Shown here: positions 3,080 to 40,489 of the stretch, one piece after another | How the letters are laid out: each line of letters begins with the position of its first letter | Numbering within the stretch: the stretch's first letter is position 1 | Virus record (IMG/VR): IMGVR_UViG_3300020193_000015 | DNA length: 64,000 nt | Reading direction: 5' to 3' (one strand) | Origin: a virus | The notes under the pieces: model-generated | Database searches by the model: none | The model's input: only the letters and a program-made list of their open reading frames with translations | Told to the model about the DNA's origin: nothing | Program-made: the position numbers and the translations under genes

Positions 3080-3845
3080 ACCATTGATGATGTTGTCCCT
3101 GCCGAATACTGGAACTGATTGGTTGGTTAAATGTTTATTAAAGACTAATAAGTATAATTATTCTAGGGAATTTTTCAACCCAATGGTGAACGAAAAGTAT
3201 TGTGATATTTTATCGAAATGTTTTGGGTGTGAATATGCTTCTCTTGCGCATTTGATTGCTAAAGAGCCTATTTTGTCTTTGGCAACAAGTGTTTTAAATG
3301 ATAGTTGGAATAAAGAAACATTTGATTTTACTAAAGAGACATTTTCTGCTTTTAAAATTGATTTCTTTTTTAAAAAATTTACTTGTTTTGTTTTATTCAG
3401 AAAAATAGAACAAAGTATGCCGTCGAATGTCTTTGAAAGGATATATCCATTAAGAAGCTGGTATGATGCTATGTTTTTCTCTTTAATAGCCAATAAAGCA
3501 TCTCTTGAGCCAGATATAAGAAAAATGGTTGAAGTTACTGAAAAATATGGTTTGATAGAGAGACAAATAGCTGCTTTTGTGATATATTACAGCAAGTTAC
3601 TTAAAGAAGCTAAAGATCGTCAACTTATTGTTTTGGAATATGATAAATTGCTTTCCTTTTCAGCGGTAAAATTAGTTGATTATTTGACGATTCCATTTAT
3701 TTGCAATCCTACATTAACTGCATCTGAAGTTTTGGAAACTAGAAAACCACGAATGGATAATTTTTGCTCATTAGGGAAAAAAGCGGTTAAATTTAAAGAA
3801 CTAATCACATCTTTTGCACCAGAAGAATACAAGGCTTTATGTTAA
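3072..3845 (+). CDS. hypothetical protein, possibly sulfotransferase-like
   Basis: N-terminal LPNTGTDWL resembles the PAPS-binding PKSGTTW motif; weak. Confidence 0.3.
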   Translation: MNKPLMMLSLPNTGTDWLVKCLLKTNKYNYSREFFNPMVNEKYCDILSKCFGCEYASLAHLIAKEPILSLATSVLNDSWNKETFDFTKETFSAFKIDFFFKKFTCFVLFRKIEQSMPSNVFERIYPLRSWYDAMFFSLIANKASLEPDIRKMVEVTEKYGLIERQIAAFVIYYSKLLKEAKDRQLIVLEYDKLLSFSAVKLVDYLTIPFICNPTLTASEVLETRKPRMDNFCSLGKKAVKFKELITSFAPEEYKALC

Positions 3846-4363
3846 AGGTTATGCCTAGATATCAAACTGACAGACCTGATATAAGCGGGTGGTTCCTTGA
3901 TTATGAAGGACGTTTTTATCATGATTTAGTCTCTAAAATTGAAAATGGTATTGTTGTCGAAATTGGTAATTGGCATGGGCTTTCATTATCATATGTTGTG
4001 GAAGTTTGTGCCCAGCAAAACAACAAAATTTATGCAGTAGACAAATTTCATTGCACTGAATTTCTTAAAAATTTTAAAAATTGGCCTCAAAATACAGTAG
4101 AATTAATTACAATGTCTTCGGCGGAAGCTTCACTTAAGTTTGATGACGCTTCTATAGACCTAGTTTTCATAGACGCAAATCACGAATATAATTCAGTGCA
4201 TGCTGATATAAATGCTTGGATGCCTAAAATAAAAAAAGAAGGAATTATTTCAGGCCATGATTATTGTTTAGCTTGGCCTGGCGTTATAAAGGTTGTTGAT
4301 TCTTTGCTTCCTAATAGAAAAATTCAAGATAGAATTTGGTATTGTAAGCTGGAGGGAATATGA
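3839..4363 (+). CDS. class I SAM-dependent O-methyltransferase (TylF/Methyltransf_24-like)
   Basis: VVEIGNWHG motif I; VFIDANHEY; GHDY. Confidence 0.6.
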   Translation: MLKVMPRYQTDRPDISGWFLDYEGRFYHDLVSKIENGIVVEIGNWHGLSLSYVVEVCAQQNNKIYAVDKFHCTEFLKNFKNWPQNTVELITMSSAEASLKFDDASIDLVFIDANHEYNSVHADINAWMPKIKKEGIISGHDYCLAWPGVIKVVDSLLPNRKIQDRIWYCKLEGI

Positions 4364-5698: not shown

Positions 5699-5983
5699 AT
5701 GTGGACTTCTGAAAAAAATGGTTGGGTAATTGCTTTTAAAGAACCATATCCAGAGACTTGTAATTATGAAGAAATACAAGCAATTTTTAAGAAATTATTT
5801 TTAAAATTGCGACATATTTGCCCAAAAGGAGTAAAACTTAAGTCAGTGCAGTCATTAGTTGGCACTTTATTTGTCGCTGGTTCAAATGAAGCTTGCCTTG
5901 AACTACAAAAAAGGTTAAAATCCACTAATCTGGCTCATATGGAAGAAAACAGGAGTAAAGTGGAGATTAGTTATGGAAAATGA
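5699..5983 (+). CDS. hypothetical protein
   Basis: ORF track. Confidence 0.35.
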   Translation: MWTSEKNGWVIAFKEPYPETCNYEEIQAIFKKLFLKLRHICPKGVKLKSVQSLVGTLFVAGSNEACLELQKRLKSTNLAHMEENRSKVEISYGK

Positions 5984-8764: not shown

Positions 8765-9850
8765 ATGCGAAGTCACTTTTGGGATGTAGTGGTAAGGGGA
8801 TTTTTACCCATTCGTGATCCTGTATTAAAGGGAGATTTATTTGAAAAAATACCCCTTACAGGATCAAGGAATGAAATATTTAATTATTTAAATCAAAATA
8901 AAGTTGATTTAACAGCATTTGTAAACAATGAAGAAGATTGTGAACGGCTCTTTAGAATGTATTCCTATGCTGCTAGTGCCTTTATTCATTCCCAAAGTGA
9001 ACCGCCTACAAACGTTCTACCAAAAGAAATAGCCGTACCTTTAGTTAAGTTCTCTCAGATACTAGACAGAAAGCCAATTCTATCATATGGTAGCTATTGT
9101 TTAAATAATTGGCAAAGAATAGATGTTACCAAACCTGTAGAACTAGGTAATATTCGTTTATTGACGCATTTTTGCCCTATTCCATATAATCGGGATGAAG
9201 CTTGGTTTATTCTGGTGCATGTGGATATAGAAAATTCAGCAGCTTTGGGTATTTTTGCTTGTCATTCGATGCTTTTGCAAGACCCCTTAACACCTGAATT
9301 TGCTTTCTTTGTGCTTAATCAGATAAAAACCAGTCTGATTAACATGAATAAAGCCTTGAATAGAATGCCAGAAGAATGTAGCCCAGAGCATTATTTTTTA
9401 TTCGTTAGACCTTATATATTCAGCTTTGAAAATGTTGTTTATGAAGATTGTTTTCATGGTAAACCGCAAACTTTTAGGGGTGAAACAGGGGCACAAAGTT
9501 CTATAATACCTGCTTTTCTTGCAGCATTGGAGATAAAGCATAAAGATTCAATGTTGACTCATCATTTGCAGGAAATGCGGGATTATATGCCTAAAGACCA
9601 TCGCATTTTCCTGAATAATTTAGAAAATAGTTCTGTGCATCTAAGGGAAGTGGCTAAGAAAGACAGCAAGTTAAAGCCTTTATATAATGAATGTTTAATG
9701 CAACTTATTGATTTTAGAGAAAAACATTTTGAATATGCTATTAACTATATTGCTAATAAAGTAGAGAATCCTAAAGGTACAGGAGGAACACCTTATGTGC
9801 CTTGGCTTAAGCAGCTGAAAGAAGAGACTAAGCAGCAAATTTTGGAGTAA
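8765..9850 (+). CDS. hypothetical protein
   Basis: the ORF track begins at 8732 inside the hairpin motif; ATG 8765 is more plausible. Confidence 0.45.
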   Translation: MRSHFWDVVVRGFLPIRDPVLKGDLFEKIPLTGSRNEIFNYLNQNKVDLTAFVNNEEDCERLFRMYSYAASAFIHSQSEPPTNVLPKEIAVPLVKFSQILDRKPILSYGSYCLNNWQRIDVTKPVELGNIRLLTHFCPIPYNRDEAWFILVHVDIENSAALGIFACHSMLLQDPLTPEFAFFVLNQIKTSLINMNKALNRMPEECSPEHYFLFVRPYIFSFENVVYEDCFHGKPQTFRGETGAQSSIIPAFLAALEIKHKDSMLTHHLQEMRDYMPKDHRIFLNNLENSSVHLREVAKKDSKLKPLYNECLMQLIDFREKHFEYAINYIANKVENPKGTGGTPYVPWLKQLKEETKQQILE

Positions 9851-9852
9851 AC

Positions 9853-9987
9853 ATGAAAGATTATTTAAGGACAATCAAGCTTGGCATCGGAGAAGGTGAA
9901 CCCGGCAAGCAAGCATGTTGGATGAGTGCCCTTTCTGCGCATTTGGGCGGGGAATGGACAGATAGTTTGGAATGTGTTGATCCTTAA
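9853..9987 (+). CDS. 44-aa N-terminal module MKDYLRTIKLG..CWMSALSAHLGGEWTD..CVDP, paralogous to the N-termini at 38949 and 39938; ends in TAA
   Basis: direct sequence comparison; the gene junction GAGTAAACATGAAAGATTAT is also duplicated at 38945. Confidence 0.45.
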   Translation: MKDYLRTIKLGIGEGEPGKQACWMSALSAHLGGEWTDSLECVDP

Positions 9988-19707: not shown

Positions 19708-19751
19708 AGCAAGTGCAGGTATTTTAATTGTACCAAGTACCTGCACTTGCT
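19708..19751 (+). terminator. perfect 14-bp inverted repeat AGCAAGTGCAGGTA/TACCTGCACTTGCT with the 15-mer motif in its 16-nt loop, followed by a T-run
   Basis: read directly. Confidence 0.6.
19723..19737 (+). promoter_or_regulatory. conserved 15-mer TTTAATTGTACCAAG (copy 1 of 12)
   Basis: exact 15-mer; next ATG at 19786. Confidence 0.6.
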
Positions 19752-21938: not shown

Positions 21939-22343
21939 ATGAGCATTTTTGCAGATAGATTGAAAACCCTTCTTACGGTGGACAATAGCTGTTTTGCCTA
22001 TACATTAAAAGAATGGGCTTATATATTACACAGACCCGTTGAGCGAATAGAAGATTGGTTTAATGATAAAGATATACCTAGTTTTTATACTTTAAACCTT
22101 ATAACTATAGTTTTTGAGCATTCCAGCGATATGAATGTGGAAGCCTTAGCCCAATTTAAAGAATTGTTTGACATGAATCCTCTTGATATATCGCCGCATG
22201 GGGCTAGAATGTTGCCTTCCCTTGGGGAATACATCAAACGCACTATTTTTTCCGACGAATCCAGTATATTAGCAAAACTAAATAAAGATGAGCAAGCTGA
22301 ATACCTATTAAATAAATATGCAAGCCAGCAAACTACCAATTGA
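21939..22343 (+). CDS. hypothetical protein
   Basis: ORF track. Confidence 0.4.
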   Translation: MSIFADRLKTLLTVDNSCFAYTLKEWAYILHRPVERIEDWFNDKDIPSFYTLNLITIVFEHSSDMNVEALAQFKELFDMNPLDISPHGARMLPSLGEYIKRTIFSDESSILAKLNKDEQAEYLLNKYASQQTTN

Positions 22344-30847: not shown

Positions 30848-33800
30848 ATGTCGCAATTTAAGACAGTTGAGAATTTTAAGGATATTTTAATGTTAAAAGA
30901 AAAAACTACTTTGCGATCCTATCAGCTGCTTCTATTAGATAATCATGATTTAGTAGAAAAGACGATAGATGTTTATACAAAAGGAGCTTCTGCTTGGTTG
31001 GACTTTTGGCTTACTGTTTTGGGCGGTATAGAATTTGAGATGATTCCATTATCTCCTCTTAGCAGTTATTGTATTACTAAAAAATTAAAGAGGAAATCCC
31101 AAGAAGATAAAGAAATATTTATTCCTATTAGCGAAGAAGCTTTATTGTTTGGCTGTTGGTTTTCTTTAGAAACGAATAGCAATTCGCCATTCATTATTTC
31201 TGTTCAAGATGTTTGGAACAAGTTCAAATCTTATCTGCCGAATAATGTGAAAATAAGCTACAATTGGGAAAGAACTATCAAAGCACAAATTAATTCCTTT
31301 GTGTCTGAGAATACTTGTTGGGTAGATAGAAGAAAAGCATTTCAAGACCTATCATTTAAAATTAATGTTGCTGATCTTGTTTGTAAAAAAGATTTTTGGC
31401 TTAATAAAGATGTGGATAGCAAATTGTATATGAGAAGTGCCTTGGGGCAATGGTGGAATGATGGAACAAAATCAGATTGGGTTAATCTTAAAATTAAATG
31501 TGAACAGTCTATAAAATTTATCGAACAAGAATCAGATATCAGAAATGCAAAAACAAAAATTCTACAATCTCTTGGATTGCCAGATATAGCAGAAGCTAAA
31601 GAAATTGGCAAAGCTTATGGCAAAAAAGGAAAGCCTTCCAGAGTGTTTATTAAATTGGAAAAATTAACAGAAGATACTACCAAAGACCAATTGGTTAAGG
31701 AATTTCAAGAAGAAATTGTAAACGCAGAAGAACATGTTGCTTTTAAGCGTTGTCCCTGGCATGCGAAAATTAGAGAAAACATTGAAAAAGCAATAGGTGT
31801 AAGTTATTTTAATGAAAAAGGTAATAGTAGTCAAAATAATTTTGGAGAAATGGGCAATCTTGCTCTTGAAAAAATTAAAAGTTGGAAATCTAATTTTTTT
31901 AATGTCTTAGGAGAAAGATATCATAACTGTAAATCTGATTTCCATGATTCAGAGGTAAAAGAATGGTTTGAAGAATACAAAAAAACAAACAAACAACTTA
32001 GAAATAGCAGCCTTTCAGGACTTGAAAAAGTATTTGATTTACTAGATAACAAGTCTTTTGAAGATGCTATTAAAGAAGCCCAAAAATCCTACAACATTCT
32101 TGGAAGAAGATTTGGAGACGCTAACTTTTTCAACTTTTTAGGCAATAAAATTCAGTCCAGAAAGGACAAAGATTGGTTGAAATTAATACGAGAATATGAT
32201 AATTGGGATAATGTAAATTACAAATTTATAAATCATAAAAGTCCAAGACTTAAGCATTTTGGGGATGATCACTTAGCCACTCCTAGATTTGGGGAGTCAA
32301 GACCAACAGGCAATATCAAAAGCACAACTGGAAATAGTCACTCAATTACATTGAATGTTTTCGATGGCAAATCATTCAAACTGACTAAAATTAATTCTGC
32401 TTGCAAAAGATTGTCTAATGAAATTAAAGATAATCAATCAATTAGACAGACTAAGTTATCTGGAAAAATCTTTGAAAACTATCGAATTCTTCCTAAGAGT
32501 TTAGTTAAAAAGGGTGGACTTAAACTTTGTAAACAAAATGATAAATGGTATGCCCATCTAACAGTCAATTTGCCAGTATTTGAAAAAGCTTCATGGCAAA
32601 AATTGATGAAAACCGGCACCATAATAATGAGTATAGACCCTGGTATTAGAAGTTCTATATCATATACTATATTTGAAATATTTGAATGTGATCGAGATAC
32701 AGATTATTTTATTGAAAATGGCATTACTCATGTGAAAATACATTCATGGGAAGATCATAGTGGTACTAAGTTTAAAGTGCCTCATAATAATTTGTGGGTT
32801 AAATTGTTGGAATGGGGACATATTCGTGATCTACAACCTATTGGCGAAAATGGTTATCGTCAGTGCAGATTAGATGGTGGAACAAACACCAATTTAGACT
32901 CAGAAGAAATAGAATTTTGGAAATATCTTTTAATAACTGGTGTTGAGCAAAAAGACATGCCTGATCCTTTGCCAAAAAGGTCTGAATATTCTAGAATTAT
33001 TGCAAATTTAATTAACAAGTGGTATACAAACAAATCAAAAGAAATTACAGATAAGGTTAAACAACTAAATATTAATGATCCTGTAGAGTTTTCAAAAACT
33101 TTACAACATGTAAGAAAAGAAAGCGATTTATCATCAGAATTATTGATAAAGGCGTCCCAAATATTATTTGTAAATAATTCAGATAAAATTGGGAGAGGCG
33201 GGTTATCCTATGCTAGAATTAAGATGCTCCAAACACTTTCTTCTGCTTGTAATAAATTCTTAAAAGTTAAAGAAAATAATGCAGAAATTATTGAATTTCA
33301 GAATTTTCTTAGAAAGAAAATTAATGCCATAAGAACGGAACGAGTAAGAATTACTGTAAACAAAGTTTTGCATGAAGCTGTCAATAACAAAGTAAATCTA
33401 ATTCTATATGAAAATACCCAACTAAAATCTTCTTCCAGTTCCCCCAGAGGTCTTAATAGAAGTATAACATCCTGGTGCCCGTCAAAAGTAATCGAAGAAT
33501 TGAAAAAACAAATAGATTTGTTGCCAATTTCTATAATGGGAGTAAACTCTGCTTATACGTCTCATAACTGTTTTGTAACTTGCAAGAAAAAATGTCGTTA
33601 TGATAAAGTTCATTTAGATGATCTTAATATTGAGCCTTGGAAAGAAAGAATAACCGATATTTTTACAAAAAAACAATTAAGCTTAACTGATTGTTTGTTG
33701 AAAAAAGGTTGGGAAAATTTCCTGAAAGAAAATGACTTGATGAGCTACAAACAAATACCTGAATTTGTTAAAAACAAAAAAGCTTTTTGTTTAGTTCCCT

Positions 33801-33910
33801 CCAGGACAGGAAAATTGTTTGTTACAGAAATTGGAGAATTGAATGCTGATATCGCCGCTGCTGCTACAATAGGAATGAAAGGTCTTGCAATAATCCTATC
33901 CAAAGCTTAA
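30848..33910 (+). CDS. cas12: type V CRISPR effector, Cas12-like (1020 aa; size and repeat suggest the Cas12i-like compact class)
   Basis: split RuvC motifs in TnpB/Cas12 order: RuvC-I MSIDPGIRSS (D about 32636), RuvC-II LILYENTQL (E about 33410), Cys-containing stretch SHNCFVTCKKKC, RuvC-III ELNADIAAAATIGMKGL (D about 33849); a 26-repeat array follows directly. Confidence 0.75.
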   Translation: MSQFKTVENFKDILMLKEKTTLRSYQLLLLDNHDLVEKTIDVYTKGASAWLDFWLTVLGGIEFEMIPLSPLSSYCITKKLKRKSQEDKEIFIPISEEALLFGCWFSLETNSNSPFIISVQDVWNKFKSYLPNNVKISYNWERTIKAQINSFVSENTCWVDRRKAFQDLSFKINVADLVCKKDFWLNKDVDSKLYMRSALGQWWNDGTKSDWVNLKIKCEQSIKFIEQESDIRNAKTKILQSLGLPDIAEAKEIGKAYGKKGKPSRVFIKLEKLTEDTTKDQLVKEFQEEIVNAEEHVAFKRCPWHAKIRENIEKAIGVSYFNEKGNSSQNNFGEMGNLALEKIKSWKSNFFNVLGERYHNCKSDFHDSEVKEWFEEYKKTNKQLRNSSLSGLEKVFDLLDNKSFEDAIKEAQKSYNILGRRFGDANFFNFLGNKIQSRKDKDWLKLIREYDNWDNVNYKFINHKSPRLKHFGDDHLATPRFGESRPTGNIKSTTGNSHSITLNVFDGKSFKLTKINSACKRLSNEIKDNQSIRQTKLSGKIFENYRILPKSLVKKGGLKLCKQNDKWYAHLTVNLPVFEKASWQKLMKTGTIIMSIDPGIRSSISYTIFEIFECDRDTDYFIENGITHVKIHSWEDHSGTKFKVPHNNLWVKLLEWGHIRDLQPIGENGYRQCRLDGGTNTNLDSEEIEFWKYLLITGVEQKDMPDPLPKRSEYSRIIANLINKWYTNKSKEITDKVKQLNINDPVEFSKTLQHVRKESDLSSELLIKASQILFVNNSDKIGRGGLSYARIKMLQTLSSACNKFLKVKENNAEIIEFQNFLRKKINAIRTERVRITVNKVLHEAVNNKVNLILYENTQLKSSSSSPRGLNRSITSWCPSKVIEELKKQIDLLPISIMGVNSAYTSHNCFVTCKKKCRYDKVHLDDLNIEPWKERITDIFTKKQLSLTDCLLKKGWENFLKENDLMSYKQIPEFVKNKKAFCLVPSRTGKLFVTEIGELNADIAAAATIGMKGLAIILSKA

Positions 33911-33959
33911 AATGGCTCTGTTCGTTGATCTTTGACATCTTATTTTTAAGTTTATTTTA

Positions 33960-33996
33960 AACAGAAAGCAAACTGTTATCAGTTTTTCTTTCTGTT
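33960..33996 (+). terminator. hairpin AACAGAAAGCAAACTG..CAGTTTTTCTTTCTGTT downstream of cas12
   Basis: about 16-bp imperfect stem, T-rich. Confidence 0.55.
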
Positions 33997-33997
33997 C

Positions 33998-34035
33998 AGT
34001 CTCTCGCCCTTATTTAAAAATAAGGGCGAGAGACT
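33998..34035 (+). terminator. perfect 15-bp stem AGTCTCTCGCCCTTA/TAAGGGCGAGAGACT with loop TTTAAAAA
   Basis: read directly. Confidence 0.6.
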
Positions 34036-34259
34036 ATGTGGTGAAAAACGTTGGAAAAGAAAATTTTTCTTAAGTCCTGATGAATTAAGCTTTTGCGATA
34101 AAGTTATCCTGTGCTGCCTATCGCTCGTTTTAAGTCTTTATTTGAAAAAGGTTTATGGCATCAAACCAATAAAATTCGGATATGCAGTTGTTCTAAAGTA
34201 ATTGCCTCTCGCATACTTGTTTGTAAGTTGTTTTATTAAAAGGCTTTATGCAAATGAGC

Positions 34260-36080
34260 GTTGCAATAGATTAAAACAATGTGCTGTTATTGGCACTTCG
34301 GCGTCATCGTCGGCATGGCCGCCCTGGTCCTGGTTGCAATAGATTAAAACAATGTGCTGTTATTGGCACACCAATGGCCAGTTTCAGAAAAGCACTTTTT
34401 CAATGTTGCAATAGATTAAAACAATGTGCTGTTATTGGCACAAATAAAACCAGCCAGTAACCGCTATATCCGCAAAAGTTGCAATAGATTAAAACAATGT
34501 GCTGTTATTGGCACTATTTGATTGTACATTGCATTACAATCGCCGTTTTTGTTGCAATAGATTAAAACAATGTGCTGTTATTGGCACCCAAAGGCCAGTC
34601 TCCGCCTTTGGCGCTCAAGAGCGTTGCAATAGATTAAAACAATGTGCTGTTATTGGCACCGATACAATGAAAGTAATCACGTGCACGATGGCAAGGTTGC
34701 AATAGATTAAAACAATGTGCTGTTATTGGCACGTCAAATATGGAGTAGGATGAAGGGCGAATTTTGGAGTTGCAATAGATTAAAACAATGTGCTGTTATT
34801 GGCACTGGAGGCTAAGGACTAACAAGAAGAAACTAGGAATGGTTGCAATAGATTAAAACAATGTGCTGTTATTGGCACGGAGTCCAGATACCATAGTTAA
34901 TTCGTTGCAATAGATTAAAACAATGTGCTGTTATTGGCACACTAATCAGCCAATCTTCTTAGGTGTTGATCTTTCGTTGCAATAGATTAAAACAATGTGC
35001 TGTTATTGGCACCGAACCGCCCTTGCCGCCGCCGTACACCTTAATGGTGTTGCAATAGATTAAAACAATGTGCTGTTATTGGCACTATCCGCAAAAAAAG
35101 AATGTGTCAATGCAAGGGTATTGTTGCAATAGATTAAAACAATGTGCTGTTATTGGCACCCAGCTTGGCAATCTGTCCTTCAATGTGCGTTCTTTGTTGC
35201 AATAGATTAAAACAATGTGCTGTTATTGGCACTATAGTGTATGCACCGACTAATATATAATAGTAGCGTTGCAATAGATTAAAACAATGTGCTGTTATTG
35301 GCACTTTTTGGTCCTCGTCGTGGCCGTACACGTGATCGAGGTTGCAATAGATTAAAACAATGTGCTGTTATTGGCACTCCAGTTATTGCTTGTTACTGAG
35401 AGAAGGGCTGGGCAGCGTTGCAATAGATTAAAACAATGTGCTGTTATTGGCACTATAGCAATCGATTATCTCCGCATCGTCCAGTAGATGTTGCAATAGA
35501 TTAAAACAATGTGCTGTTATTGGCACCTGCGCAGCGTAGAAGGTTGTTTCGTCGATGACCTGGTTGCAATAGATTAAAACAATGTGCTGTTATTGGCACA
35601 AACGTGACAAAGAGGTTGCAATAGATTAAAACAATGTGCTGTTATTGGCACATGAATTCGCCAGTGGCGACATGTCGGTCCGTGTCTGGTTGCAATAGAT
35701 TAAAACAATGTGCTGTTATTGGCACTTGATGCTCTGCCCCAGACTTTCGTGGAAATCCGTGTTGCAATAGATTAAAACAATGTGCTGTTATTGGCACGGC
35801 ATTTGCTTAGCCACCTCCGCACTCTTACACTTCTGTTGCAATAGATTAAAACAATGTGCTGTTATTGGCACAATGTTCCAGACTTGCTACTACCTAATAT
35901 GTTTCCGTTGCAATAGATTAAAACAATGTGCTGTTATTGGCACGTGCGAAGGTTGCCGGACTGCTTATGTTGCAATAGATTAAAACAATGTGCTGTTATT
36001 GGCACTGGAACGCACTTTTTCTTTTTTGCGATGCAGCAAGGAAGTTGCAATAGATTAAAACAATGTGCTGTTATTAGCAC
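34260..36080 (+). CRISPR. CRISPR array of 26 repeats and 25 spacers; repeat GTTGCAATAGATTAAAACAATGTGCTGTTATTGGCAC (37 bp); terminal repeat is degenerate (..TTATTAGCAC)
   Basis: repeats enumerated at 34260, 34333, 34405 and so on to 36044; spacer lengths are mostly 35-37 nt, with outliers of 15, 25, 25, 38 and 39 nt; the repeat 3' end forms GTGC-TGTTATTG-GCAC; the degenerate repeat at the 3' end implies a leader at the 5' (cas12-proximal) side. Confidence 0.95.
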
Positions 36081-36216
36081 TCCAAGCAGCAACATTCCTG
36101 ATCGTTTAGCTGAAATTTATAGTAAAGATGATCCTGTGCCGCCTCAAGTATGGGAAGCAGTTAAAGAAGTCCGAAAAGGAATGGGCATGATGTGGCATTA
36201 CGCAGGAGATTAATTT

Positions 36217-36732
36217 ATGTCATTGATTTTAGCTAAGTCTGCTCCTAAACTGGAGGTTAAAACTTTTGGTATTGTGCCAATTCCTTCATTAGAAGATGAA
36301 TTGAAGCACCCCAACATATGGATTCGTACCAGAGATTCTAAAGAAGTAGATTTTGAAATAGATTTTATTGATTTTAATCAAATATTGGATTGTTATTTTG
36401 GATTTAAACCATCGGCAGACATATTTTCCATTGACGAAGAGGAGATGGAATTTTGGTTCGGTAGTAATAATTGGGCAGAAAATTGCATTCTATTCAAATT
36501 CAAAACCAATGACGCTAATGTATTTGCCATTGATGAAACAGATTTCAAAGTAATGGCACAATATGTTTATACCAATACAGATTTAATAGCAAATGACGTA
36601 AGATTAAATTATTTGGGAAGGCATAAAAAGAAGTCAGAAAAACTAAAAAGAGGGCAAGATTTATTTGATTGGTTGCTTTCTTTGAAATTGGTCGATGGTT
36701 TTAATACAAAAAACAAAAGGCTTGCAAAATAA
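36217..36732 (+). CDS. hypothetical protein
   Basis: ORF track; contains the second copy of the 36-nt repeat (36274..36309). Confidence 0.4.
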   Translation: MSLILAKSAPKLEVKTFGIVPIPSLEDELKHPNIWIRTRDSKEVDFEIDFIDFNQILDCYFGFKPSADIFSIDEEEMEFWFGSNNWAENCILFKFKTNDANVFAIDETDFKVMAQYVYTNTDLIANDVRLNYLGRHKKKSEKLKRGQDLFDWLLSLKLVDGFNTKNKRLAK

Positions 36733-36733
36733 C

Positions 36734-37450
36734 ATGACATTTTGGCAAGAAGCAAAGGGGTTGGCCAAGTCTTTATGGTTCGACCCTTTTTGGTATTTGA
36801 TGTTATTTTTGATAACATTTGGGCCGGTTCTTAGTCATGGAGAATTTCCTTGGTGGACTTGGCTATGGATTCCAGGGTCTATTCTGGTTATGTTCTTTAT
36901 TATATTGTGCAAGCAAAGATATGGCTACCGTTGGAATAAGGAAGAGGAAGATGCCAAAGACCCTATGCGGTATAGCGTGAAAAAAGTAAAGTTTAGCATG
37001 GAAAAAGGTGGAAATTCTGTGAATACTGAAATTATTGTTAGATATGCCAGAAAAGAAGACGCACATACTTTATATCAACTTTATAATGGCGATTGGTCTA
37101 ACTTTATAATGTTGGGGCATAGTTTTTATGAATATGAAGAAATGATATTGGCTTCTCATGTTAAAGTAATTGGGGCTTTTAGAGAAGATGCGTTTCTTGA
37201 AATTAAAACTTCGACAGCAGTTGGAATTTTAATTGCAGTTGATGTAGTTTGCTGGGGGTATTTGGATATAATTTATGTTGATGAAGAATATAGAAAATTA
37301 GGTGTTGGCAAGAGAATGATAGATTTACTTATAGCATCTAATCCCAAATGGAAAAAACTGGAAGCTGGGGATATAAATGAGAATGAGAAGATAAAAGAAA
37401 TGGGTTTTCAGTACGTTGAACCTTTAAATTGGTGCGTGAAAAGCTTATGA
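36734..37450 (+). CDS. membrane-anchored GNAT-family N-acetyltransferase
   Basis: two N-terminal TM segments; motif A VDEEYRKLGVGKRMI; the ORF track starts at 36695. Confidence 0.45.
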   Translation: MTFWQEAKGLAKSLWFDPFWYLMLFLITFGPVLSHGEFPWWTWLWIPGSILVMFFIILCKQRYGYRWNKEEEDAKDPMRYSVKKVKFSMEKGGNSVNTEIIVRYARKEDAHTLYQLYNGDWSNFIMLGHSFYEYEEMILASHVKVIGAFREDAFLEIKTSTAVGILIAVDVVCWGYLDIIYVDEEYRKLGVGKRMIDLLIASNPKWKKLEAGDINENEKIKEMGFQYVEPLNWCVKSL

Positions 37451-37638
37451 TAACAAGTGATGATCCTCTTACTGCAAAATTGATAAAGCTTTTGAACCGG
37501 GCACATGATATAATATGGCTCAATGCTTTAGAACCTATTTATAAAGAAGAGGTTTTGTCACAAGCAGAAATTGAAGCTTTTCTGATGGAAGTTGAGGAAG
37601 TAATATATAAGCCAAACCCAAAAGCCCCTGTAGTTTAA
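37429..37638 (+). CDS. hypothetical protein
   Basis: ORF track. Confidence 0.3.
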   Translation: MVREKLMITSDDPLTAKLIKLLNRAHDIIWLNALEPIYKEEVLSQAEIEAFLMEVEEVIYKPNPKAPVV

Positions 37639-37697
37639 TTGTGCAAAACGTGCTACTTTAGATAGCTAAGATGTGGGTTCGAATCCTGCCAGGGGCG
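37624..37697 (+). tRNA. tRNA with anticodon UUA (candidate ochre/amber suppressor tRNA)
   Basis: manual cloverleaf: acceptor GCCCCTG/CAGGGGC, D-stem GTTT/AAAC, anticodon stem TGCTA/TAGCT with loop CTTTAGA, variable loop AAGAT, T-arm GTGGG-TTCGAAT-CCTGC, discriminator G; unusual G at position 37. Confidence 0.55.
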
Positions 37698-37726
37698 TTA
37701 GTTTCATTGCATATTTACTATGATAT

Positions 37727-38300
37727 GTGATGAAGAAAACAAAACCAACACAACTTAATGAACAAATATTACAAAAAATAATTCCAAATTGTATTTCTTA
37801 CAGCGAAGTGTTTAGGCAATTAGGTATGGTTCCTGCTGGTGCCAATTATAGAACCTTGCATAAGTATGTTAAATTATGGAATATTGATGTATCTCACATT
37901 GAGGCACGTACTTGGCATAAACATATAAGTAATGGGAGGGGCAGACCTTTAGAAGAAATTTTGGTTAAAGGCAGATTCGAGACGGGACACATTCTAAAAA
38001 AAAGACTTATAGCAGCAGGAATCAAAAAACATGCTTGCGAAGGATGTGGTTTAACTGAATGGCGTGGCAAGTCAATTCCTTTAGAAGTTCACCATAAAGA
38101 CGGGGATAGGAATAACAACTTGCTTGTAAGTCTTGTGATGAAAAAAACCGAAAAACAAAAATTTCTTGGCCATCCTGTGAAGAACTTCAATCAATGATAA
38201 AATCTTCTTCATTTTTAGCTGTTGGAAGGCAATTAGGAGTTTCAGATAGGGCAGTTCATAAGCGGTTAAAGAATCATTGTGGAATCAAAAATGAGTAAAA
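37727..38300 (+). CDS. HNH homing-type endonuclease with an apparent -1 frameshift near 38125 (1-nt indel)
   Basis: CEGCG..LEVHHKDGDRNNNLL in frame 1 (stop at 38197), then CKSCDEKNRK..SSFLAVGRQLGVSDRAVHKRLKNHCGIKNE in the -1 frame to 38300; together these rebuild a complete HNH plus C-terminal HTH tail. Confidence 0.6.
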
Positions 38301-38947
38301 TTAAAGTTTTAACTATAGAAGAAGCTATGTGGAATATAGGCCAATATAAACCTAGCAAAGTCAGACTTCCAAAGAAACTAGTTGAAATTGGAAAACTGAA
38401 AATCCATGCAGACACACAATATTACGATGCCTTTGCTAATTATTATAGCAGGCTAAAAACTCAATTGCCACATGATAAGTTCTGGCAAATAATTGAATTT
38501 CTAAGAAAGCTAATCGCAAATCGTGGTTTCACCTATGACAAATTAAAAACTTCCATAGATGAATTGTTCCGGCTAACTGCAACTGGAGAAAGCGAACACC
38601 CTGAAGGTGGTTTTGATGGTCCACATGTTGCATATAATTTCAAGGACTTATTGCAGTTCTGCTTTACATATGAAGGAATTTCCGATAAAATAGACCAGAA
38701 GCTTGATGACTTTTCTCTTGGCAGTGATGATTCTAGAGGCGATTTGATGGATTCACTGCCCTTGGCTGGTGTAAAAGTGTACGAAAATATACTAAATGGC
38801 ACAGTCAAGAATGAGCAAGATTTAGAAAAAGAATTGAAGTCATTGGCTAAAAAATGGTATGAGTTTATCCGAAATGGCGAAAACTATGTGTGGATGACAT
38901 TAAAGGAAGAAGCGGCAAGTAGAGCCTTAAATCTAATGATGGAGTAA
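38291..38947 (+). CDS. hypothetical protein
   Basis: ORF track (38279). Confidence 0.4.
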   Translation: MSKIKVLTIEEAMWNIGQYKPSKVRLPKKLVEIGKLKIHADTQYYDAFANYYSRLKTQLPHDKFWQIIEFLRKLIANRGFTYDKLKTSIDELFRLTATGESEHPEGGFDGPHVAYNFKDLLQFCFTYEGISDKIDQKLDDFSLGSDDSRGDLMDSLPLAGVKVYENILNGTVKNEQDLEKELKSLAKKWYEFIRNGENYVWMTLKEEAASRALNLMME

Positions 38948-38948
38948 C

Positions 38949-39641
38949 ATGAAAGATTATCTAAGAACAATTAACTTGGGGTAGGGAGTCGGTGAATCTG
39001 GCAAGCAAGCATGTTGGATGAGCGCTCTTTCTGCTCATTTGGGTGGGGAATGGACCGATACATTAGATTGCGTTGATCCTATCATTAATAGCCTTTGCAT
39101 AATTATTAATGATCTTTATTATATGGACAATAAGGGCAGAACCAATGACATTATGAAATTTGGTTTGTTTGCTCCATTGGGAACTAAAGGCACTTGGAAA
39201 GATACTGAGAAAAGACTATTTAAACTTGCGGATATTGCTATAAGAAAATGGGCAGCAACCGTGAGTTTTCATACAGGATTTATACAAGATGAAAAATTCC
39301 TAAGAAATTTGGATGAAATTGTAGATTTGCCTAGTCTTCGTAAAGCTAGAAATGATATTGAAATTGCAGCTTGTTATTTAATGAGTGAATTGGACATAAT
39401 AATTTATCATATAAAAGGCATTTTGATAATCCACGAAACTTGCAAGAGAGAAATGATAGCTAATTTATATAAGTTTACTGGAATTTTGATAGATCATATG
39501 GGTAGAAACGTTCTCGTAAAAGATCATTTATATTCTGCACTAAGAGAACTAATTGAAATGGGTCCACATGCACCAGAAGAACCTGAATATCCTGCTTGTG
39601 GTATTCCAAAGTTTCAAGAACTAGTAGGTATTAAAACATAA
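38949..39641 (+). CDS. paralog B1 (N-terminal MKDYLRTINLG.. module); in-frame TAG at codon 12 (38982..38984)
   Basis: ATG 1 nt after the upstream stop; the frame is continuous with ORF 39018..39641 except for the single TAG; the aligned position is Ile or Phe in the paralogs. Confidence 0.5.
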
Positions 39642-39653
39642 ACTAAAAGAATT

Positions 39654-39682
39654 AGTGGATTAAAACAATGTGCTGCTGGCAC
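39654..39682 (+). repeat. orphan degenerate CRISPR repeat GATTAAAACAATGTGCTG-CTGGCAC (3-nt deletion in the hairpin loop)
   Basis: 18 of 18 nt plus TGGCAC match the array repeat; lies between the 38949 gene stop and the 39694 gene start. Confidence 0.55.
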
Positions 39683-39693
39683 ATAGGTATTAA

Positions 39694-39936
39694 ATGTCAA
39701 AGTTAACTGTTAGGACTATCTTTAATGGTGCAATGAATGCCAAGTATGAAGTTAGTATTCCTCTTAACAAGAAAGAAACAGAGGAACTTAAAAGTGCTTT
39801 GGAAGTGGTAAGAAAGTATGAGAAACAAGCTTTAGACGCCACAAAGGTATCTAGAAAGACAGAAGCAGTTGTAATTGATTATCTGGTTAAATCAAATAGT
39901 GTGCTTATCTCTGTTGAAGCTGGAGGTTTTGGTTAA
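39694..39936 (+). CDS. hypothetical protein
   Basis: ORF track. Confidence 0.35.
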   Translation: MSKLTVRTIFNGAMNAKYEVSIPLNKKETEELKSALEVVRKYEKQALDATKVSRKTEAVVIDYLVKSNSVLISVEAGGFG

Positions 39937-39937
39937 A

Positions 39938-40489
39938 ATGAATGATTATCTTAAAACAATCAAGCTAGGATTTGGCAAAGGCAAAAGGGGAGAACAAGGA
40001 TGTTGGATGAGGGTGTTCCACATTGCAGATACTGTTATTAGAGAGTGGACGCCAACTGTGTTAAGAAATTATTGGCACGGTTTACGGATCGGTTGTCCAA
40101 TGCACCTTTTATATCAAAAAATTGCTGATAAATTAGAAGAAATGCCTAAAATTTCAAAAGAAACATCTAAACTTTATCGTGTTTTAGATACTTTAAATGA
40201 AATGGAAATTAAAGAATTAAAATCTGCAAAAACTATTATTATGGCTGCATGTTTTCTTTCCATTAAACATAGTCGTATAATGTGTGATGGCATTGCCGAT
40301 TCCGTTGTTGGCACATTTCCTTGGCCTTGGTTAGAATTGAATGCCGACCGTGATCATAGAAAATACCTAAAGACCAAAGTTTACCCATTGTTAAGAGAAC
40401 TAATCGAAATGGGACCACATGCACCAAAAGAATCAGAATATCCTGCTTGTGGTGTACAAAAGTTCAAGGAAGCGGTGGGAATAGTTTAA
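39938..40489 (+). CDS. paralog B2 (MNDYLKTIKLGFGKG..CWM.. module; C-terminal LRELIEMGPHAP..YPACG shared with B1)
   Basis: sequence comparison; the ORF track starts at 39875. Confidence 0.5.
   Translation: MNDYLKTIKLGFGKGKRGEQGCWMRVFHIADTVIREWTPTVLRNYWHGLRIGCPMHLLYQKIADKLEEMPKISKETSKLYRVLDTLNEMEIKELKSAKTIIMAACFLSIKHSRIMCDGIADSVVGTFPWPWLELNADRDHRKYLKTKVYPLLRELIEMGPHAPKESEYPACGVQKFKEAVGIV

Follow-up and report, generated by a model that had tools for sequence, protein, structure and literature searches.

Why would a phage that encodes a Cas12-family effector and a long CRISPR array also carry one copy of the repeat on its own, between two genes? The question is raised by a segment at 39654-39682 (plus strand, AGTGGATTAAAACAATGTGCTGCTGGCAC) in 64,000 nucleotides (nt) of phage DNA, IMG/VR virus record IMGVR_UViG_3300020193_000015. 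We refer to this whole stretch as the window. An initial annotation described the segment as a solitary degenerate repeat and suggested, without choosing among these, that it could be a processing or regulatory site, a decoy or a remnant of array recombination. Our analysis confirmed the observation, gave partial support to the interpretation and traced the unit to the type V-I CRISPR repeat of the phage itself.

The array repeat is 37 nt long (GTTGCAATAGATTAAAACAATGTGCTGTTATTGGCAC) and is present in 26 copies. Its positions 10-27 form an 18-mer, GATTAAAACAATGTGCTG, which is found 27 times in the window, 26 times in the array and once at 39658-39675. The identity of the solitary unit to this part of the repeat is 18/18. 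An exact match to an 18-mer of the repeat is expected by chance 2.5e-4 times anywhere in the window, and 0.18 matches are expected if up to three mismatches are allowed. Immediately 3' of the 18-mer, the unit reads CTGGCAC, compared to TTATTGGCAC in the array repeat, with 6/7 identity in the 3' arm. The differences in this part are a 3-nt deletion and one T>C substitution, both located in the loop. The initial annotation had reported the deletion, to which we add the substitution. The stem GUGCU/GGCAC and the complete A-rich tail before it are both present. The hairpin of the unit, GUGCU-GCU-GGCAC at 39670-39682, has 5 base pairs (bp) and a 3-nt loop, compared to 6 bp and a 4-nt loop in the array repeat.

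The repeat-derived part is shorter than originally annotated. The 9 nt upstream of 39658 match repeat positions 1-9 at 3/9, which is the random level. We therefore place the solitary pseudo-repeat at 39658-39682 (plus strand) and exclude 39654-39657. It consists of repeat positions 10-27, matched exactly, followed by CTGGCAC, and corresponds to the 3' handle part of the repeat. Its 5' boundary is sharp, with positions 10-37 kept and positions 1-9 random. Judged by its sequence, the unit reproduces the 28 nt at the 3' end of the repeat, with the loop shortened by 3 nt. It has the same orientation as the array, the effector gene and all neighboring genes.

The unit is also solitary, as first described. 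Smith-Waterman and hairpin regular-expression scans of both strands of the 64-kb window found no further repeat copy besides it. No second repeat was found beside it, and it does not have the two or more repeats flanking a spacer that define a CRISPR mini-array. A second GTGC..GCAC hairpin match at 5846-5865 was rejected, being located within a 94-codon open reading frame (ORF) and occurring at chance frequency. No Rfam family was found for the array repeat or the unit. The starts of the gene family flanking the unit superficially resemble the repeat (GATTA..AAAACAAT), and we considered whether the unit is the decayed 5' end of a lost copy of this family, whose starts read GATTATCTTAAAACAAT. 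This was rejected by an nhmmer profile built from 10 such starts, which recovered three of the family's starts at E<=1e-17 and, even at E up to 100, missed both the unit and the array.

The array is located at 34260-36080 (plus strand) and contains 26 repeats of 37 nt and 25 spacers. Most of the spacers are 35-37 nt long, and three are truncated, with lengths of 25, 15 and 25 nt. The final repeat (36044-36080) is complete and carries a G33>A change, which converts the wobble pair U26-G33 to a U-A pair and preserves the structure. It is the only variant repeat besides the solitary unit, which begins 3577 nt beyond the array end. The leader region (33911-34259, plus strand) lies between the effector gene cas12i and the first repeat. 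This placement, on the cas12i side, fits the mutated repeat at the far end of the array. Within the leader, at 33911-34100, a long perfect inverted repeat, CAGTCTCTCGCCCTTATTT..AAATAAGGGCGAGAGACT, directly follows the cas12i stop codon, and it is probably a terminator or regulatory hairpin that separates cas12i from the array.

Several other observations concern the array. Its 26 repeats make it large for a phage. The mean GC content of the spacers is 46% (maximum 69%), compared to 36% for the phage. Spacers 2 and 5 have their first 12-13 nt in common. No Cas1, Cas2 or Cas4 gene was seen near the locus. Directly after the array, at 36082-36213, 43 codons run to a TAA at 36211 with a coding score of 0.36 and no start codon outside the array. 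This frame may be what is left of the 3' part of a gene that was cut short by the arrival of the cas12i-array cassette; it has no similarity to the next gene. Within the 64-kb window, no self-target or regulatory target of the array spacers was found. Spacer 1 has a 20-nt seed that is found unchanged in a holin-like gene of 14 IMG/VR contigs, whose GC content is about 62%. These matches are diverged homologues only, with CAG or CAA as the 5' flank. In a search for the protospacer-adjacent motif (PAM) through the spacers, two other spacers had no match, and the phage database gave no match.

The system to which the repeat belongs can be assigned from its effector. The gene at 30890-33910 (plus strand) encodes 1006 amino acids (aa) as in public assemblies, and its longest ORF starts at 30848. 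PADLOC Cas12i models match the protein directly (E=4e-24 and 3e-23), compared to only 1e-16 for Cas12b, and Pfam gave no match. A word-index search returned only the protein itself, and 39 relatives, each about 1000 aa long, were recovered by a full HMMER search. A profile built from 33 of them gave a full-length match to Cas12i2 (6LTP/6LTU) at E=5e-87, with Cas12i1 at about 3e-64 and Cas12b at 1e-29. In the 33-sequence alignment, the RuvC D-E-D triad, D597, E855 and D1001, is invariant or nearly so. By these profile comparisons, the gene encodes a Cas12i-family (type V-I) effector. The initial statement that the phage carries the matching effector is thus correct, and 'Cas12-like' can be made more exact.

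The Cas12i family has been reported to process its own precursor CRISPR RNA (crRNA) in the absence of a trans-activating crRNA (tracrRNA) (PMC7567891; PMC9122993). No anti-repeat, complementary to the repeat, was found outside the array in the 64 kb, which fits a tracrRNA-less system. Phage-encoded type V-I systems have been reported from huge phages (PMC7162821). The closest homologues of the effector, P0015 (40%), P0016 (30%) and P0018, come from short contigs, about 4 kb each, that stop at or within their arrays. No relatives were found when viral and genome collections were scanned with the effector profile. The array on contig L026 is adjacent to a 30%-identical Cas12i relative and has the repeat GTCGTCACACCGAAACAACTAGTGCCGGACTTGGCAC, which shares with the phage repeat an A-rich tail followed by GTGC...TTGGCAC. 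The L026 array (3535-4170) also contains a truncated, hairpin-only repeat at 3605-3623. At its trailer end, two variant units lie in a 51-nt tandem duplication, and their 5' stem arm is changed from GTGCC to AAGCC. From these L026 units, partial handle-side copies of the repeat are present in at least one related array as well.

What part of the repeat has been kept? In Cas12i2, the repeat part of the mature crRNA is 23 nt long and consists of a stem-loop and a 6-nt 5' tail, and the cut is made between A(-23) and U(-24) (PMC7567891). Mutating the three nt just 3' of the cut abolishes or reduces processing, and the sequence upstream is dispensable (PMC7567891). Counted from the 3' end, the solitary unit holds repeat positions -28 to -1 minus the three loop nt. 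By the Cas12i2 reckoning, it contains a complete handle and about 5 nt past the expected cut, and the part that has been lost is what processing discards. Because the handle and the nt just 3' of the cut are kept, and the upstream sequence is dispensable, the unit would retain what Cas12i2 needs. By analogy with Cas12i2 only, the predicted Cas12i cleavage zone is at 39661-39665 (plus strand), about 6 nt 5' of the hairpin. The retained part may reflect selection on a functional handle, or the junction may have fallen at position 9/10 by chance.

The unit is located in a 52-nt gap between two genes. The region at 39640-39700 reads ...TAA ACTAAAAGAATTAGTG GATTAAAACAATGTGCTGCTGGCAC ATAGGTATTAA ATG.... 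The upstream stop codon ends at 39641, 12 nt before 39654 and 16 nt before 39658. The unit ends at 39682, and the ATG of the downstream gene is at 39694, 11 nt further on. These distances agree with the initial annotation. A Shine-Dalgarno-like TAGGT (39684-39688) is separated from the unit end by 1 nt. The upstream gene is the first of two paralogs. The downstream gene, ORF80, is an orphan gene of 80 codons (39694-39936, plus strand), and its stop is 1 nt before the next ATG. From the array to past 46 kb, every gene is on the plus strand, and the interval between the array and the unit is 3.6 kb long with five genes and one tRNA.

ORF80 has a codon-usage score of 0.29 in frame, typical of the genes of this phage, compared to -0.6 and -1.2 out of frame. 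By codon usage, it is a genuine gene. A search of 5.8 billion proteins returned only ORF80 itself, and no match was found in Pfam, PHROG or PADLOC. Its AlphaFold model is unusable, with a predicted local distance difference test (pLDDT) score of 47.

Promoter-like sites in the region number 26, compared to 29.8 expected, indicating no signal above background. Sigma-70-like 9/12 matches were found only at 39371-39400 and 39094-39122; other phage promoter types are outside the reach of the scan. No convincing plus-strand terminator was found between the array and the unit. No plus-strand terminator-like site was found at 39683-40293, where a coding gene directly follows the unit. No sign of a stand-alone small-RNA gene with a promoter and terminator was found at the unit. 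Read on the minus strand, the unit is AUGUGCCAGCAGCACAU and then UGUUUUAAUC. Like the array repeats, it was scored as terminator-like there and resembles a weak intrinsic terminator. We regard this resemblance as a by-product of the shape of the handle, an A-rich tail with a hairpin.

The sequence following the unit is in the position of a guide. This pseudo-spacer (39683-39718, plus strand; ATAGGTATTAAATGTCAAAG) holds both the TAGGT and the ORF80 ATG (39694-39696). No second significant match to it was found within the 64-kb window. No PAM-proximal match of at least 10 nt was found in the window, including the region upstream of cas12i. The best PAM-proximal match, 9 nt with TTA at 22300-22311 (minus strand), is expected about 0.16 times by chance.

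The window itself is phage DNA. At least 48 kb of the genome lie outside it, the contig being at least 111,954 nt long. It encodes rIIA (PHROG, E=3e-117), rIIB, endonuclease VII domains, a tRNA-His guanylyltransferase and HNH homing endonucleases, and in the phage collection its nucleotide sequence matches only an uncultured huge phage of 595 kb. Further contigs of the phage studied here (L002-L004, L008, L009 and L028-L034) show 99.7-100% identity to the window. Two of them, L008 and L009, also span the unit and are 100% identical to the window, so this comparison has no power. Across 35401-39383, seven contigs from several samples show only three single-nucleotide variants and one 9-nt deletion. 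Contigs tile across the 3.6-kb block that separates the array from the unit, and a population-variable insertion there was rejected for this reason.

Searches for the unit in more distant genomes gave no informative relatives. The 18-mer core had 15 matches in IMG/VR and JGI metagenome contigs (1 and 14, respectively), all of them single chance matches without the GGCAC arm; coverage by the metagenome collection is incomplete, as it failed to return the known JGI contig L009. Several of the 15 matches lie within coding ORFs. The 24-nt handle has no copy in the GTDB species representatives. Scans of viral contigs with single flanking proteins found no related loci, and a profile of the two paralogs found 13 homologues. 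No CRISPR-like unit is present on the homologue contigs L005, L006, L007, L010 and L035, which contain tandem paralogs with a conserved intergenic motif instead. These distant relatives have no known matching CRISPR system.

Taken with its position, the unit may be a handle-only pseudo-repeat in the operon mRNA that is bound and cut by Cas12i, occluding the ribosome site of ORF80. We estimate the probability of this reading at roughly one in three. Upon transcription of the operon, free Cas12i would recognize the handle of the unit like that of an array repeat, cut the mRNA at about 39661-39665 and remain on the new 5' end. The downstream RNA would enter the guide channel, with TAGGT at guide positions 2-6 and the AUG of ORF80 at 12-14. 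The operon transcript would be split at the unit, and translation of ORF80 would be occluded in proportion to unloaded Cas12i. An orphan crRNA-like RNA would also be made, whose only perfect DNA match would be the phage's own ORF80. Cleavage is not expected at this site, since its PAM position is filled by the repeat end (CAC), as at every array spacer. The coupling between Cas12i and the unit may be selected regulation, or it may merely be tolerated.

Several features argue for binding and cleavage by Cas12i. They include the identity of the unit to the repeat, its sharp 5' boundary, its strand with no convincing terminator between it and the array, a Cas12i effector with no anti-repeat in the window, and the rejection of a decayed paralog start. 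Both differences between the unit and the repeat are confined to the loop, and the stem survives. The unit also abuts a Shine-Dalgarno-like motif and the start of a genuine gene. The processing or regulatory site suggested by the initial annotation would thus fit the anatomy of the unit, in which the segment that suffices for Cas12i2 cleavage is kept and a ribosome-binding site is adjoining. Going one step further, the unit could act as a natural, protein-responsive riboregulator, at which free Cas12i cuts the operon mRNA and covers the ORF80 start. We consider this unlikely. With such a switch, ORF80 and perhaps later genes would be made only in the absence of Cas12i, or once it is saturated with crRNA or inhibited. 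Post-transcriptional control would then be exerted by a type V effector that targets DNA, through its RNA-processing site and with no DNA target involved.

A number of points weigh against cleavage of the mRNA by Cas12i. Self-processing by this effector is presumed. The Cas12i2 processing residues H485, H486 and K18 are unmatched at the aligned positions, with T and K at the His-His site and no conservation at the K18 position; the alignment is uncertain at about 25-30% identity, and other residues could serve for processing. Cas12i2 reads the loop bases sequence-specifically (PMC7567891), and the altered loop of the unit may weaken or abolish Cas12i binding. The folding free energies of the unit and the array repeat are -3.9 and -4.9 kcal/mol, respectively. 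Neither fold is better than those of shuffled sequences, so that the repeat origin of the unit rests on sequence identity and not on folding energy. ORF80 is without homologues or known function, and any regulatory logic is conjectural. Lastly, there is only one instance of the unit and no informative relative, so that selection on it is conjectural as well.

The strongest alternative is that the unit is inert, a piece of an array repeat copied into the gap by illegitimate recombination or template switching, or left there by a rearrangement of the array, with no selected role and perhaps no longer bound by Cas12i. We rate this as equally probable as the cis-acting Cas12i handle. The region is prone to recombination: the upstream paralog has a premature TAG, a fragment of its family is found at 9840-9929, relatives have tandem copies and a homing-endonuclease gene is present. 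In addition, an 11-nt direct repeat, TAGGTATTAAA, at 39625-39635 and 39684-39694 (plus strand) brackets the stop codon and the pseudo-repeat. About 15 such close 11-mer pairs are found in the 64 kb, compared to 5.5 in Markov shuffles, and the local chance of one is about 0.02, which is no more than suggestive of a recombination junction. Downstream of the upstream stop, ACATAAAC..AATTAGTG resembles the gene end and 3' flank of the family in relatives, ACATAGACCAATTGTACC, and the 5' flank of the unit therefore looks native. A recombination junction would also yield the sharp 5' boundary of the unit. Arrays of this type show deletions and partial repeats, as seen in the truncated spacers and in the hairpin-only repeat and variant trailer units of L026. 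Relatives of the flanking genes are without such a unit, and the loop, which Cas12i2 reads, is damaged. An inert remnant, however, would need to be recent or constrained to show no substitution in 18 nt, 6/7 identity in the 3' arm and changes only in the loop. Its sense orientation, its placement in a 52-nt gap and the retention of the handle only would be coincidences, although each is individually plausible.

Three further explanations also have to be considered. In an abundant mRNA, the unit could draw Cas12i into non-targeting complexes, whether the phage's own, whose activity it would buffer, or that of a host or rival phage with the same repeat. The handle is kept in the unit, and solitary repeat units of phages do act as RNA anti-CRISPRs (Racrs), three of them against type V-A (PMC10651486). 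Racrs, however, usually follow their own promoter, away from cas genes. Here no promoter signal above background was found, and the unit is associated with a cas gene. One unit would add about 4% to a handle pool that already contains 26 true repeats, which together with cas12i lie 3.6-9 kb upstream, and no bacterial or archaeal species representative has this handle or a close Cas12i relative. Such a decoy or sponge is improbable. We regard as still less probable that the unit produces a guide, with the pseudo-repeat and the following about 20-36 nt directing Cas12i to a partially or fully matching DNA site elsewhere, which it would repress or cut. An upstream repeat alone suffices for a type V effector, and the type V-A CreR and viral Cracr RNAs are composed of one pseudo-repeat and a spacer-like sequence (bioRxiv 10.1101/2024.10.29.618823). 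The 64-kb window, however, offers no target beyond the chance-level match of 9 nt with TTA. The spacer-like sequence has no terminator after it and coincides with the ribosome site and first codons of a real gene, and ORF80 has no homologues to be targeted in competitors. A role independent of Cas12i, as an intrinsic terminator of antisense transcription or as a short homology for recombination with the array, is the least probable of these explanations. It would account for the terminator-like minus strand. The unit also forms a direct repeat with the units of the array, and recombination between them would delete 36081-39657. The stem is weak, though, no nearby minus-strand genes or promoters need termination, and the population contigs tile 35401-39383 with no deletion variant.

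How does the unit compare to known systems? Engineered Cas12a and Csy4 processing sites in mRNAs are repeats that are cleaved by the Cas nuclease, which separates or insulates cistrons. Like the unit, they place a repeat within a protein-coding transcript, but they are artificial. To our knowledge, a natural phage-encoded equivalent for Cas12i has not been described. In type V-K CRISPR-associated transposons, the delocalized crRNA is a diverged single repeat and guide located away from the array and used by the same Cas12. It has a chromosomal homing target, whereas the unit is found without a target or a transposon context. A degenerate terminal array repeat would resemble the unit in being the most diverged copy, on the trailer side, followed by non-spacer sequence as a meaningless guide. 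In contrast to such a repeat, the unit is 3.6 kb from the array and misses its first 9 nt, and the array has its own mutated last repeat.

The closest natural parallels are single-repeat RNAs. Racrs mimic host repeats and are typically small RNAs, each made from a promoter of its own directly before it, with no cas genes associated (PMC10651486). Like the unit, they are single intergenic phage repeats with a repeat sequence and hairpin, and type V-A examples have been tested (Camara-Wilpert et al. 2023). Unlike them, the unit copies the phage's own array and is 5.7 kb from the cognate cas12i. It lies within an operon, 1 nt from a ribosome-binding site, with no promoter or terminator of its own found. 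The lack of association with cas genes, a typical and not strictly defining trait of Racrs, does not apply to a genome that also carries cas12i and the array. CreR and Cracr combine a PAM-flanked match of at least 10 nt to a promoter with a rho-independent terminator (bioRxiv 10.1101/2024.10.29.618823). These type V-A RNAs resemble the unit in having one handle-keeping pseudo-repeat and a spacer-like sequence, and they are processed by their Cas12 effector. The unit differs in being type V-I; no promoter match or terminator was found for it, and its spacer-like part is a translation start. Solitary repeat units (Racrs) and single pseudo-repeat guides that repress promoters via Cas12a (CreR, Cracr) are thus already known. 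The present unit differs from them in belonging to the phage's own type V-I system, in having no DNA target found in the window and in lying against a translation start, in a coding transcript.

The genes on both sides of ORF80 belong to a multi-copy family. Paralog 1 (38949-39641, plus strand) is upstream of the unit, and its longest clean ORF is at 39018-39641. Paralog 2 (39938-40489, plus strand) encodes 183 aa. The two are 31% identical, with a well-conserved C-terminus. The family has a Cys-rich N-terminal domain and the conserved C-terminus LRELIEMGPHAP..P.CG..KF.E.VG, and in this phage its members are truncated or fragmentary. Relatives, represented by the loci L007, L010, L035, L005 and L006, have a hypervariable, low-complexity center rich in Ala, Tyr and Asn and form tandem arrays of at least three copies. 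No match to the family was found in Pfam, PHROG or PADLOC, and a model of the paralog (pLDDT 64) gave no fold match. A contig starts exactly at 39049, within paralog 1, in two independent assemblies (ENA ERZ27247963 and JGI 3300020197). Other contigs cross this position with no variation, and the shared start may be an assembly effect of the paralogous sequence.

The in-frame TAG in paralog 1 (38982-38984) is codon 12, which is L, H, F or Y in relatives, and it is present in 7/7 covering population contigs. It may be a premature stop with re-initiation at the ATG at 39018, or it may be read through by a nearby suppressor tRNA. A well-formed tRNA is located at 37624-37697 (plus strand; Rfam, 57 bits), with a GNAT-like gene on one side and an HNH homing endonuclease gene on the other, 1.3 kb upstream of the TAG-containing gene. 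Its anticodon is UUA, that of an ochre (UAA, possibly UAG) suppressor. Population variants in it are a 9-nt deletion at 37641-37649 (L029) and a G>T change at 37673 (L028). TAA is the commonest stop codon of the phage, and no sign of general recoding was found. Recoding of TAG as a general code change was rejected, since TAG terminates several long ORFs.

A short motif recurs between genes of the window. Its core, TAATTGTACCAAG, usually after TT, has 12 copies, all on the plus strand, with AATTGTACC starting at 19726, 23735, 25166, 27375, 40488, 48446, 50217, 52903, 54058, 55792, 57030 and 62876. Several of them overlap the stop codon of a gene, with a start codon following after 7-60 nt. In the relatives L007 and L035, TAGACCAATTGTACCC is found in nearly every intergenic gap. 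The motif probably serves as a promoter or RNA-processing signal specific to the phage. Before ORF80, where the pseudo-repeat sits, it is absent.

If the unit is inert, it would be a dated trace of recombination of the phage array with other parts of the genome, and would mainly inform how such arrays are rearranged. If Cas12i acts on it, the unit would provide a compact natural design for Cas12i-responsive translational switches, and Cas12 RNA processing would be naturally controlling an mRNA in cis.

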